Of a stretch of DNA of 33,339 nucleotides, positions 18,118 through 23,556 are shown piece by piece. Positions within the stretch are counted from its first letter, which is position 1, and every line of letters starts with the position of its first letter. A program made the position numbers and the translations under genes. This stretch comes from a virus (Duplodnaviria > Heunggongvirae > Uroviricota > Caudoviricetes), in IMG/VR virus record IMGVR_UViG_2531839180_000001. One strand, written 5' to 3'. Under the pieces are notes generated by a model. That model had not been told where the DNA came from and made no database searches. It saw nothing but the letters and a program-made list of their open reading frames with translations.

Positions 18118-18672
18118 ATGATGCATTTAAAAAATATTACCGTTCAGAATCCTAAAACGATTGAGCAATACCAGCTGGCGCGACAGCATAAATTTTTATT
18201 GTGGCTGTTCTCAGATGATGGTCAGGAATGGCACGAAGCCCAGGAAAAATTTCAGCCAGATACTCTGAAAGTTATTTATACCGAAACTGGCGAGGTTGTC
18301 TGGGTCGGAAAAGATATCACCTCAATCTGTCCGGAAAATAAAAGTGTAATTGAGCTGCCGGATATTACTGCTAATCGCCGTATTACCGTGTCCGGTTACT
18401 GGTTTTACCGCAATGATGAATTTGTTTTCGACTACAAACTTAAGGCGGAAGATGAACGCGACGCCCTGTTAAAACAGGTCAGTATCATGACCAGCGAATG
18501 GGAAAAAGACCTGCTACTGGGGCTAATCAGCGACGAAGACAAGGAAAAACTGAAAGCATGCCGTATTTATGCGAAAGCACTACAGCAGATGACATTCTGC
18601 CAGGTTACAGATAAAGCATCGTATGCCGCAATTGCGTGGCCAGAATTACCGCAGAACATTGACGAGAATTAA
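18118..18672 (+). CDS. tail fibre assembly chaperone (gpG/Tfa-like)
   Basis: 184 aa directly downstream of the fibre gene; C-terminal AAIAWPELP-type motif; AT-rich. Confidence 0.7.
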   Translation: MMHLKNITVQNPKTIEQYQLARQHKFLLWLFSDDGQEWHEAQEKFQPDTLKVIYTETGEVVWVGKDITSICPENKSVIELPDITANRRITVSGYWFYRNDEFVFDYKLKAEDERDALLKQVSIMTSEWEKDLLLGLISDEDKEKLKACRIYAKALQQMTFCQVTDKASYAAIAWPELPQNIDEN

Positions 18673-18678
18673 GAAGTT

Positions 18679-20538
18679 ATGAGCGCACTGTTAACAAAAG
18701 CATTTGAAAAGTGGGTTACTGGGTGTACAGCAAGTAATTTACCTGCACGCCCCGACGCCATTATATTCGCCCTGATGGAGCGGGAACCGACGCGCGATGA
18801 CTACACTATCCCGCCAGAAAAAATTGTGCACACAGAAAGCAATCTGACGTATGGTCAACTCAACCAGAACACTATCGTGTGCAGTGCTACAGTTGCGGAA
18901 GAAACTGAGTTCAGTTATGACTGGATTTGCCTGGTACATCAGGATAGCGGCACGCTATGCGGCGTGATAAAAACCCCGATCCGCCACAAGCAACCAGGAG
19001 AAACTCTCCTGCGAAACTTTGTTATTATCCACAGCGGACTTGCACAGGCTGCGCAAATCATCACTCCACCACAGAGCTGGCAGGTGGATATCAACCCATG
19101 GATTAATGAAATAAAAAATAAAATTGAAACGATACCATCAGACAGAATAGAAGATTTTAATTCACTACAAACAACCTGTACCAATGCAATGCTTCAACTT
19201 GAGCAACCAGAGGTTATTGATAAAACAATAACCATTAGCATCAAACAAAACATTAACTTCGATTATACTGGAGAAATTAAAGGTCACTGCAATATTCCAG
19301 ACCCCGAAAAATATGCAGTATCAATGTATACTCATACAACCGGTGAATACTTTAACGGCAACAGTCCTTTAAATGCGGATGGCTCTTTTTATTTCAAGCG
19401 AAGTTGGACTGGAGCAAAGCAGTTTCGACTTATTCGTCTTGAAGACAATAAGTGGATCACAACACTGGAATATCCCCTGTGCATCCGCAGCTACTGGATG
19501 CCAGAAAACGCAGATCCAGAAGTTGCCGGAGTTATGAAAGACCGGTGTTACACCTATGATCAAGCACTGGCAACGCTGGCATTAATAGTACAGCGTCACG
19601 AGGCTGTAGAAAGATACGTTATCGGCTTGTGTGCGCTTGTAGGTGAAAACGGCGGGGTAAAATTTTTCGTTAACAGACTGTCAGCTATGTCTCCACGTGC
19701 CTATTACCGCCTTGGGAGCGCGGCGTGGGTATACTATGCCCTGGCATTTTATCTTGAGAAATACCCGGACAGCCCACTGGCAGAGCAGGTCAGAGAAAAG
19801 CTATTGGCAGGCATTGCATGGCTTGATACTTTCCTGGTGACTACACCAGATGACCTGCGCGAAGGTCTGTATAAAGGCGGCCTGGGACGTTATGTGAACG
19901 GTAATTTTGATGCTGACTTTGTTGTTGAGTGGTGTGCGCTTGAGCACAATGTCGATATCTGGTTCCTGTTTGAGTTGATGGGACGACTGGGATTCAGTGG
20001 GTTTAGCGAGCGCGCAAAAAAACTGGCAGAAAGCATTATCAGGGGGATGTGGGTAGATGAGGAAGGGAGATTTCGCCAGGGCGTTCACCCAAACCACTAC
20101 GACAATGCTGCAGCACTGGACCAGTCATCCTGGGGAGGTCTGTTTGTCGCTAATATTGATGCAGAGAAAGCCACCAAATGCCATCGCTATATGGGGCGGT
20201 TTCTCTTTGGTACAAGGGAAAGTACAGGGTACACCCCTTATCACCCTGATTACGGTTACAGCGGGCATAGTCGCGGTGTGTGGGTGGAGGGGACTGCAGG
20301 CGTGGCGTTGTTTGAGCGCAAGCTGGGCAATGAACTAAGCGCGGCTAATCTCATCGCCGCTATGGCACCTCTTCGCGATAAATATGGATATCGTGATTCG
20401 TGTGATGACCCTACATACGATGTACTCCCCCCGTGGCCATCCACAGCTAATACAGCCTGGATTATTCTGGCATGCAATCCAGATGGATTCTGGCTGGTAA
20501 ACACACCAGCGATGGAAATAGGATTTGTCAGATACTGA
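18679..20538 (+). CDS. second tail fibre / tailspike-like protein with enzyme-like C-terminal domain
   Basis: N-terminal ~150 aa align with the main fibre N-terminus (PARPD, F-Y-WI-L...SG-LC...TP, WQ-D blocks); AT-rich linker; helical C-terminal ~330 aa. Confidence 0.55.
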   Translation: MSALLTKAFEKWVTGCTASNLPARPDAIIFALMEREPTRDDYTIPPEKIVHTESNLTYGQLNQNTIVCSATVAEETEFSYDWICLVHQDSGTLCGVIKTPIRHKQPGETLLRNFVIIHSGLAQAAQIITPPQSWQVDINPWINEIKNKIETIPSDRIEDFNSLQTTCTNAMLQLEQPEVIDKTITISIKQNINFDYTGEIKGHCNIPDPEKYAVSMYTHTTGEYFNGNSPLNADGSFYFKRSWTGAKQFRLIRLEDNKWITTLEYPLCIRSYWMPENADPEVAGVMKDRCYTYDQALATLALIVQRHEAVERYVIGLCALVGENGGVKFFVNRLSAMSPRAYYRLGSAAWVYYALAFYLEKYPDSPLAEQVREKLLAGIAWLDTFLVTTPDDLREGLYKGGLGRYVNGNFDADFVVEWCALEHNVDIWFLFELMGRLGFSGFSERAKKLAESIIRGMWVDEEGRFRQGVHPNHYDNAAALDQSSWGGLFVANIDAEKATKCHRYMGRFLFGTRESTGYTPYHPDYGYSGHSRGVWVEGTAGVALFERKLGNELSAANLIAAMAPLRDKYGYRDSCDDPTYDVLPPWPSTANTAWIILACNPDGFWLVNTPAMEIGFVRY

Positions 20539-20565: not shown

Positions 20566-21315
20566 ATGAACAATTTCCCATCCATATTACAATCAACCAC
20601 CTCCCAATGGAGAGAGGTAATCCTGCGCCCAGCAGCTATAAATACATCCTGCTCTCAACTCTGCTTTCATCCATGGTCAGGCAATACAGGAAATGCCACA
20701 CCATCAGGCCGTTACCTTAGCCCAATCAATGCCGTTGCAGCTCTTTTACCATATCTTTCTGAAAACACAGAAAAAGATATCGTAGCGCTGTTATTTTGCG
20801 CCCCTTCTGCTGGCGAGTTTTTATCACTCGCCGGGCAATTTTCAGGCGCATTTCCGTTGCCAGAGGTGGGACGAATGTCCCGCATGATCTCCAGCCAGCT
20901 TTCACTGGGCATCAGCAGAATGCAAATCCCCGCCAGACCGGTAACATCACTTCCGGAACCGATAATGCTGTCGACACAGACCACTCGCAGCATGTCGCTG
21001 GCGGAAACCATTGCACAGGCAGCCACTCCTGCCGCCACATCACCGGATACATTGTCATCATCACTGCATCAGTTCATGAATGCGAGAGATAAAGCCTTAC
21101 AGGAAATCGCTGATCAGCAGGCCGCACTCCGGCAAAAATTTTGCCCGGTGTGGCGCTTTTGCTACAAGGGAGCCCTTAGCCAGGCTGCAGTGCTGATACA
21201 AAAAAACATCCCACACCCCGAGTGGGTTTTTACAGCTGTGATGCTGTTCGTCGGCGATAATCTCTCATCACTAAGGGAAGCACTACATGACCCAGATGAT
21301 TGTCCTTGCGCTTGA
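20566..21315 (+). CDS. hypothetical protein (249-aa frame; alternative start at 20875 with GAGGTGG RBS gives about 146 aa)
   Basis: Long open frame without SD at 20566; Ser/Thr/Ala/Pro-rich; no family recognised. Confidence 0.3.
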   Translation: MNNFPSILQSTTSQWREVILRPAAINTSCSQLCFHPWSGNTGNATPSGRYLSPINAVAALLPYLSENTEKDIVALLFCAPSAGEFLSLAGQFSGAFPLPEVGRMSRMISSQLSLGISRMQIPARPVTSLPEPIMLSTQTTRSMSLAETIAQAATPAATSPDTLSSSLHQFMNARDKALQEIADQQAALRQKFCPVWRFCYKGALSQAAVLIQKNIPHPEWVFTAVMLFVGDNLSSLREALHDPDDCPCA

Positions 21316-21862
21316 CGGGGAAGCCATTCTGCTGCGCAACATCACCGTCAGCGCCACCATGCAACTACCGGACAAAGATATGTCCGGACAGTCAACCAGC
21401 ACCACGAGCGCCCAGCAGGGAAACAAGGCTAAAGAGCTGCGCGTGTCGGGGGTTATTGATTTTAACGATGAAGCTATTCTGACCCGTATTTTTCAGCTTG
21501 CGGAGGCAACAGAAAGCAACGGTGCTAAAAAAACATATCGCATTGCTAACGCTACCGCGAAGGCAATCAATATGCGACAGGGGGTATTTTCTGGTGGCAT
21601 TGATGCCACGGAACAACAGGGAAAAATGCACTGGCAGGTCACCTTTACTCTCAGGGAAAAATTAAGCGTGCCAGAGAAAGCATCCGCACGCAGCGGTTCG
21701 CAGAAAACCATCGCCAGACAGCAGACTCAGAACGGTAGCGAACAGGCACCAGACAAAGGCATGAATACGCAAAGTTCGTTCTGGAAAAAAATCAATGATG
21801 CCGTTGGCTCTGGTCTGGATGCTGTTGGCATCGGGAGCGTGAAAGAGGAAGGGAAAACATGA
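21287..21862 (+). CDS. hypothetical tail-associated protein (occupies the P2 gpU position ahead of the hub gene)
   Basis: 191 aa; overlaps both neighbours; positional inference only. Confidence 0.3.
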   Translation: MTQMIVLALDGEAILLRNITVSATMQLPDKDMSGQSTSTTSAQQGNKAKELRVSGVIDFNDEAILTRIFQLAEATESNGAKKTYRIANATAKAINMRQGVFSGGIDATEQQGKMHWQVTFTLREKLSVPEKASARSGSQKTIARQQTQNGSEQAPDKGMNTQSSFWKKINDAVGSGLDAVGIGSVKEEGKT

Positions 21863-23556
21863 AATTGATACAACGCTGTATGATTAATGGCGAACGGGTG
21901 GAAATTGCCGATATAAACCTTGTTCTTACCCTGAATGCTGCCGGTCGTGGCTTCATTTCTGTTAACAATCTGTCACCCGAACACACACTTGCCGGCGCAA
22001 TGGTACAAATTGATCTCGGCCGTGACGGTGAAGCATGGCGCTATTTCTCCGGCTACATTGAGCGCGATCAACCTGCTGAAAATGGCTCACGTCGCCTTTT
22101 TATCCGTGAAGCAGCTGCTGTGCTGGATTTTGATTTCCCTTGCTCCATGCAACACCCGACGCTGCGGGGGGTACTCGATAATCTGGGGCGACAAAGCGGT
22201 ATCGTTTTTATCACTCCGGATGCGGATTATGCCAGTATACCAACTCCCTACATCACCCACAGCGGCAGCGGAGCACAACTGCTCAGCCAACTGGGGCGAG
22301 CATTCAGTATCAGCGATTACGTCTGGCACCCTATGCCGGACGGTTCTGTATTTGTGGGGAGCGCAGCTGATTCACGGTTTGCCAGTATTACTATGCCGGA
22401 TATTCCGCAACAGTACACACTCGGGCAAAGCGGCGGAAACAGCATCGACATCATGTTTATGGAAACTGTGCGACCGGGCGTGAATCTTCCCGCCGGGCGC
22501 ATTACCCGTGTAGCCCTCAACAACGAGAAAATGACCCTGACATGGGAGCGCCTTACCGCCACGGGTAGCCCTGTTTCCAAATCACCATTACGCAGACAAA
22601 TGGAAACACAGTTCCCGGAACTGGCCAGCGGTATTCTTCATACCCGGCTGGCGCGCGTCATTGCCCCAACGGAATCCGTCACCCTGGGCGATGTAGCCGA
22701 CAGCTTCCGCCCACGCTACGCCGTCGATGTGCAGTTGCTTGATGAGAACGGCAACGATAAAAACGATACACCTGTTTACCCGGCAGTACCCCTCCCCGTC
22801 CCCATGGCTGGCAGTGAGGCGGGATGTTTTGCCTACCCGCCAGCAGGCACCATCGTGGAAATATCCAACATTGAAGGACGACCGGATAAACCTGTCATCA
22901 GGCAAATCTTACCCGCGGGCCATAACCTGCCTGATGTAAAGCCCGGCGAACAGCTGCAGCAACAGCGCGCAGAAGTGTTTCAGCGTGTCACGACTGATGG
23001 AAGCTGGCACAGAGAAACCGATCAGCAAATCAGGGAGCATTCAGCCAGGCGAACCATTAACAGCGATCAGGAAGAACGCACAACAACAACCAGAACAACA
23101 ACAGTACAGGCAAACGACATAACCAGCGTTCTGGGAACCAGCAAGCTGATGACAGGTCAGACAGAACACATTACTACTGGCCATTATGCGATCGCAGCCG
23201 GTGAGCATATCCAGATGGTAGCGCAGGATTTGCTGACTAAACTCAAAGGGGCGACATCCACCATCGAGCATAACCTCACCGAAAACGTGGGAGGCCGCAG
23301 AACATGCCGGGCGGACGGTGGCCTGGAATTTACCGCCCCGACTGTATTTATTGGGCGCGGTGGCTCACGGGAAAAATCCGGACTTAATCTGCTGACGTTG
23401 TTGATTGATATTCTGGATCTGGTTCAGTTGCTGGCCACACACACTGCAAACCACACCCACAGCAACACTGGCACACCAACAAACAGCAGCGAACTTGCCG
23501 CAGACGCCCAACAGGCTACGAGCCTGCGCGAAAAATACGGCGACCTTATCGCCTAA
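21859..23556 (+). CDS. baseplate hub / central spike protein (gpD-like, possibly fused to a gpV-like spike tip)
   Basis: 565 aa, last gene of the late operon; C-terminus carries HTANHTHS (HxH), reminiscent of iron-binding spike apex motifs. Confidence 0.5.
   Translation: MKLIQRCMINGERVEIADINLVLTLNAAGRGFISVNNLSPEHTLAGAMVQIDLGRDGEAWRYFSGYIERDQPAENGSRRLFIREAAAVLDFDFPCSMQHPTLRGVLDNLGRQSGIVFITPDADYASIPTPYITHSGSGAQLLSQLGRAFSISDYVWHPMPDGSVFVGSAADSRFASITMPDIPQQYTLGQSGGNSIDIMFMETVRPGVNLPAGRITRVALNNEKMTLTWERLTATGSPVSKSPLRRQMETQFPELASGILHTRLARVIAPTESVTLGDVADSFRPRYAVDVQLLDENGNDKNDTPVYPAVPLPVPMAGSEAGCFAYPPAGTIVEISNIEGRPDKPVIRQILPAGHNLPDVKPGEQLQQQRAEVFQRVTTDGSWHRETDQQIREHSARRTINSDQEERTTTTRTTTVQANDITSVLGTSKLMTGQTEHITTGHYAIAAGEHIQMVAQDLLTKLKGATSTIEHNLTENVGGRRTCRADGGLEFTAPTVFIGRGGSREKSGLNLLTLLIDILDLVQLLATHTANHTHSNTGTPTNSSELAADAQQATSLREKYGDLIA

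Follow-up and report, generated by a model that had tools for sequence, protein, structure and literature searches.

Why should a prophage whose tail operon already holds a conventional fibre gene and its chaperone carry a second fibre-like gene behind them, and what would the product of that gene do? The question arises from a window of 33,339 nucleotides, the whole stretch of DNA analysed here. The host replicon of the second gene (fibre 2) is an HP1/P2-type E. coli prophage, and the gene lies within its tail operon (Table 1). We consider it probable that fibre 2 is a virion-borne second receptor-binding fibre of this HP1/P2-type temperate myovirus, whose C-terminal barrel most likely binds and cleaves a host surface polysaccharide.

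Table 1. Coordinates of fibre 2, its domains and candidate residues, and the neighbouring genes
Feature	Position	Strand	Basis or remark
Fibre 1, conventional gpH-like fibre, 618 aa	16259..18115	+	PF12571, PF03406 and gp37-like tip matches
Tfa, tail fibre assembly chaperone serving fibre 1	18118..18672	+	PF02413, E 1.7e-20; phrog_136
Fibre-2 gene, 619 aa	18679..20538	+	WP_001275091.1; phrog_13714
Anchor domain, aa 1-138, P2 gpH / HP1 orf31-type tail-collar N-terminus	18679..19092	+	PF12571; ends at conserved PPQSWQVD joint
AT-rich linker/neck, aa 139-175, two predicted helices (INEIKNKIET..., EDFNSLQTTCTNAMLQLE), start of exchangeable module	19093..19203	+	low GC, model
Small beta-strand domain, aa 176-275, GC 0.39	19204..19503	+	model; kept in all close homologues
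Predicted (alpha/alpha)6 six-hairpin barrel, glycoside-hydrolase-like, aa 276-619	19504..20535	+	AF2 model
D294 codon, YDQA motif, start of inner helix 1	19558..19560	+	97% conserved; candidate catalytic acid or sugar-binding residue
E422 codon, EHNxD motif, start of inner helix 3	19942..19944	+	100% conserved acidic residue
E537 codon, VWxEG motif	20287..20289	+	100% conserved; candidate catalytic base
HP1 orf33 homologue, 249 aa, backbone tail/baseplate gene	20566..21315	+	phrog_1677; BLASTP to HP1 orf33, E 1.3e-16
HP1 orf34 and orf35 homologues, baseplate complex proteins, downstream in the same operon	21287..23556	+	PF25759, E 1e-53; phrog_2258

The fibre-2 gene and its operon

A preliminary description, made from the sequence, had placed a fibre-like gene for a 619-aa product at 18679..20538, and the ORF is present as described, with an ATG start and intact to the stop codon. 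It is annotated in RefSeq as a 'phage tail-collar fiber domain-containing protein', and its product matches phrog_13714 ('tail fiber protein') over the full length. The order of genes is TMP, DUF2590, J, I-like, fibre 1, Tfa, fibre 2 and the homologues of orf33-35, so that fibre 2 has the position by which tail-collar fibres are recognised, in the tail/baseplate operon and near the baseplate J and gpI-like genes. The Tfa stop codon is followed, after 6 nt, by the fibre-2 gene and, after a further 27 nt, by the orf33 homologue; a scan of both short gaps found no promoter- or terminator-like sites, and within the fibre-2 gene itself searches found no RNA families and no antisense ORF with a case for coding. 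That the gene has lost its function and is decaying within a cryptic prophage seems very improbable when the ORF, intact over 619 aa, is 99.8-99.9% identical among the five complete E. coli genomes (of 5426) in which exactly this gene is present, when all of the family-invariant residues are kept and when the head, tail and lysis genes around it are intact, even though so narrow a distribution, together with the truncation by IS1 of the fibre-2 gene of one related prophage, would fit such decay.

An anchor paralogous to that of fibre 1

The likeness of the N-terminus to that of fibre 1, also claimed in the preliminary description, is upheld by BLASTP (31% identity over 153 aligned positions, E 2e-18) and by the presence of PF12571 in both proteins, at 102 bits in fibre 1 and, over residues 3-138 of fibre 2, at 25.7 bits (cut-off 23; E 1.3e-5), which makes fibre 2 a member of that family. 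The anchor is also matched by tblastn to the fibre N-termini of HP1, SI7, ESSI-2 and YenM_324. These alignments support the view that the N-terminus of fibre 2 is a tail-collar anchor paralogous to that of fibre 1. Over aa 1-155, the structure model has a pLDDT below 50, because anchor homologues are absent from its alignment. The fibres of P2 (gpH) and HP1 (orf31) are like fibre 2 in having an N-terminus of ~138 aa and in being encoded after the baseplate J and gpI-like genes; fibre 2 differs from them in that it is a second copy, located after a Tfa gene, without a chaperone and with a distal part predicted to be a globular barrel. Moreover, the PF03406 shaft repeats and gp37-like tip found in fibre 1 are absent from fibre 2 by domain search.

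All four of the related E. coli prophages examined (this one included) have a slot for fibre 2, in which the anchor stays the same while the tip differs; HP1 and the Salmonella phage SI7 have one fibre only. The fibre-2 anchors form a paralogue group of their own, with 71-74% identity among the alleles of related prophages, and all of these alleles part ways directly after QSWQVD. Since the anchors of fibres 1 and 2 are so weakly alike, and since those of fibre 2 are a distinct paralogue group, it is possible that fibre 2 uses a separate baseplate socket instead of that of fibre 1, which the preliminary description had proposed. If the barrel is active, this prophage lineage, with its second-fibre slot conserved and its tips exchanged, clearly illustrates how host range evolves by cassettes.

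No fibre chaperone follows fibre 2, as had been stated at the outset: neither a Tfa nor a DUF4376 gene lies directly downstream, the next gene being the orf33 homologue. The idea that this 249-aa protein is a hidden chaperone was rejected, as the gene is a homologue of HP1 orf33, occurs in HP1 and SI7, which have a single fibre, and is kept whatever the tip, with 93-96% DNA identity in relatives that have other fibre-2 tips. In the relative from strain A36, a different fibre-2 tip is followed by a DUF4376 gene. A Tfa-type chaperone would not be needed here because the tip would be a globular enzyme and not an intertwined trimeric knob.

The AT-rich stretch and the exchangeable module

The region 19080-19500 had been described as strongly AT-rich and, on that ground, as a horizontally acquired insert. 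A sliding GC analysis agrees with the first part: GC falls to 0.305 at 19101-19300, the lowest 200-nt window of the whole 33-kb stretch (mean 0.517, sd 0.055) and its only low-GC island inside a gene, and to 0.276 at 19090-19176; the run AATAAAAAATAAAATTGAAACGAT, quoted in the preliminary description, begins at 19110. The second part, an independent insert, was rejected: homology to other carriers at the protein level starts at about aa 142-158 and continues unbroken to the C-terminus, and a lambdoid homologue has a matching GC dip at the 5' end of the module. As judged from these comparisons, the AT-rich stretch is the linker and beta domain at the 5' edge of an exchangeable ~480-aa module extending as far as the stop codon. 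In the AF2 model, the neck helices span residues 139-149 and 160-173, and the strands of the beta domain lie at 186-264, in a block with a pLDDT of 74-96.

Homologues in other phages indicate that the module, aa 139-619, is a horizontally exchanged cassette. It is found on at least five other virion anchors, including lambdoid side-fibre and TSP1/gp66 N-termini, a nozzle protein and a gp5-like spike (the anchor types are PF08400, PF18668, PF03406, PF25613, nozzle protein, gp5-type spike and baseplate hub); the annotation in some Microbacterium phages is that of a minor tail protein, and the hosts of the phage members are Gram-negative, actinobacterial and Thermus. The protein WCJ00198.1 of phiSTEC1575-Stx2k shares with fibre 2 the beta domain and barrel, with 77% protein identity over aa 142-619 and 76% DNA identity over 19177-20522, but its anchor is PF08400, with or without PF13620, the phage is a siphovirus and the gene occupies the lambdoid side-fibre position after J and lom. 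No equivalent of the 99-aa gene located directly after the module in phiSTEC1575-Stx2k exists in the 33-kb stretch. This PF08400-anchored version occurs in many E. coli prophages and is far commoner than fibre 2, with single clusters found on ~300 contigs.

Fusion of the module to many different virion anchors argues against a non-structural enzyme that has captured a fibre N-terminus and acts outside virions, either as cargo or as a soluble glycosidase of the lysis or biofilm stage. Such a role would suit the jumbo phage ph0011, whose close homologue of 494 aa has only ~25 residues before the module (almost no anchor) and sits among small hypothetical/non-structural genes rather than in the tail cluster, and it would agree with the lack of a chaperone or adaptor gene beside fibre 2. 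We nevertheless hold it to be improbable for fibre 2, whose gene belongs to the late tail operon, where it is flanked by Tfa and the baseplate genes and has no promoter or terminator of its own, and whose anchor is complete and conserved as a paralogue group in related prophages. Of the two alternatives raised in the preliminary description, a virion-borne enzyme is clearly favoured over non-structural cargo.

The C-terminal barrel

The preliminary description had characterised the C-terminus as helical, rich in tryptophan and other aromatic residues and closer to alpha/alpha-toroid glycoside hydrolases than to a beta-helix, and both points stand. Aromatic residues make up 14.0% of the last 344 (Trp 2.9%), as compared with 9.4% in fibre 1; this part is mostly helical by prediction and contains the motifs named there, YDQALATLALIV starting at residue 293, SSWGG at 483 and WVEG at 535. 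The AF2 model of the barrel is confident and has twelve helices in six hairpins, arranged as a double barrel that is superposable on known six-hairpin members; the model and the fold comparison support, for the C-terminal ~340 aa, an (alpha/alpha)6 toroid like that of glycoside hydrolases and not a beta-helix. A search of a viral structure library with the barrel returned one real relative and some giant-virus glucosidases.

Profile searches and structure prediction, both foreseen for this region from the start, differed in their yield: the structure gave the toroid, the profiles no sequence family. No match over the barrel was found in Pfam at E<=10, in NCBIfam or, using phmmer, in the PDB. 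The Pfam GH15 model does not match fibre 2 at E<=10, and neither does the GH63 / MGH1-like PF22422, which matches four of the 78 family members at E >= 0.001, with 16-19 bits, below its cut-off of 27. PDB profile searches, with alignments of 78 sequences and of 22 barrel-only sequences, gave MmpH (E 0.21) and a GH94 phosphorylase (E 0.25) as the best matches. A second large protein search, with a barrel-only profile, recovered the same family only, with no Pfam domain over the barrel in any match and no bridge to a named GH family, and literature searches found no experimental work on the barrel protein family. The barrel may found an uncharacterised glycoside-hydrolase family, without a Pfam model or solved relative.

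Conserved acidic residues and proposed activity

Across the 78 family members, with identity down to 23%, Y293, E422, D481 and E537 are invariant and D294, H423, D426, W485, W535 and W594 are conserved in at least 90% (H423 and D426, both in the EHNxD motif, in 97% and 99%). All of these residues lie at the first turn of six alternate helices, beginning at 292, 345, 421, 480, 536 and 589, and they include the five carboxylates D294, E422, D426, D481 and E537. The (alpha/alpha)6 fold is also found in isomerases (AGE-type), in dehydratases (linalool dehydratase) and in the non-catalytic thioester domains of complement proteins (C3d and CD109), none of them hydrolytic. A lectin-like barrel that recognises a glycan or a protein without cleaving it would find a place among these, and would allow for the fact that no GH family HMM reaches threshold on the barrel. 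We regard it, however, as rather unlikely, since phage and cellular members with only 23-30% identity share five invariant or nearly invariant acidic residues at the predicted barrel mouth, a pattern more usual in enzymes than in pure binding domains.

The genomic setting of the cellular homologues also speaks against binding alone. These homologues (~30% identity) carry lipoprotein signal peptides and are encoded last in operons with the order GT2 synthase, His kinase, response regulator, HEAT protein and barrel protein, with polysaccharide deacetylase genes nearby. A hydrolase is the expected partner in glycosyltransferase-led operons, as in the cases of BcsZ and PssZ. The hydrolases of such synthase operons (BcsZ, PssZ and PslG), however, are of a different sequence family from the barrel, and the argument is one of analogy and not of homology. 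If the barrel is active, its cellular cousins would hint at an exopolysaccharide system, as yet uncharacterised, that includes a hydrolase.

If the barrel is catalytic, as we favour, it would be an inverting Glu/Asp glycosidase, with E537 as the base and D294 or E422 as the acid, candidates picked solely by conservation and topology. Points of reference among known enzymes are MmpH, which is an alpha-(1->4)-endomannosidase from Mycolicibacterium hassiacum (PDB 7QSJ), and GH15/GH125 of clan GH-L; the sequence similarity to the barrel is not significant. In MmpH, helices A and B are joined by a loop that holds Asp47 and Asp50 (PMC9883506); the topological place of D294 matches theirs, and the residues may be equivalent. 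In the weak HMM alignment (E 0.21), the EGT motif falls at most one residue from Glu262, the catalytic base of MmpH. MmpH is cytoplasmic, recycles a mycobacterial polysaccharide and is not a virion protein, unlike fibre 2 as proposed here.

In the virion, the anchor (aa 1-138) would plug fibre 2 into the baseplate, presumably as a trimer by analogy with gpH, and after the short AT-rich helical neck each chain would end in an autonomously folding beta domain and the six-hairpin barrel. Most likely, the barrel binds the host surface polysaccharide in a central acidic funnel and then cleaves it, which would clear a path through this layer to the fibre-1 receptor. The cassette (aa 139-619) probably reached the fibre-2 anchor of the lineage by recombination at the conserved QSWQVD joint. 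Prophages from strains whose names bear different O serogroups (O27, O6 and O18) have near-identical modules, which would make a conserved enterobacterial glycan, such as the LPS core, enterobacterial common antigen or colanic acid, a possible substrate in place of a serotype-specific O-antigen. A bolder reading, which we put forward tentatively and hold to be rather doubtful, joins these elements: an uncharacterised GH family would be common to bacterial glycosyltransferase-led operons and to phage tail tips, and would here form a chaperone-free, three-headed enzymatic fibre in a second socket of its own, by means of a dedicated anchor paralogue, giving each virion two independent receptor specificities.

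Fibre 2 among phage receptor-binding proteins

Like the depolymerase receptor-binding proteins of phages, fibre 2 has an N-terminal virion anchor followed by a C-terminal fold of a polysaccharide-degrading type, predicted in this case from the model; the union of a virion anchor domain and an enzyme-type fold in one polypeptide is one of the features by which that class is recognised. Most phage depolymerases are trimeric beta-helices or beta-propellers. The fibre-2 barrel matches no GH or PL sequence model, and HMM-based depolymerase surveys will therefore probably miss it. Alpha/alpha toroids account for 11 of 984 predicted depolymerases in DepoScope (PMC11326577) and for 29 of ~3,900 in a survey of Klebsiella prophages (PMC12491483). 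The fibre-2 tip is a new family member of this rare, already recognised kind of phage host-recognition protein. Trimeric beta-helices, difficult to engineer, prevail among the phage depolymerases; the barrel, if active, would add to these a compact, chaperone-independent module that probably folds as a monomer. It would also offer a natural plug-and-play part for the retargeting of phages or tailocins, because the module occurs on at least five virion anchors, in tail proteins of the myo-, sipho- and podovirus type (the last as a nozzle fusion).

Two receptor-binding proteins are also found in phages K1-5, SP6, CBA120 and phi92. These phages resemble this prophage in having two receptor-binding protein genes in one tail cassette, one conventional and one enzyme-like, but the two proteins of the prophage carry paralogous copies of an anchor and not an adaptor or branching domain.

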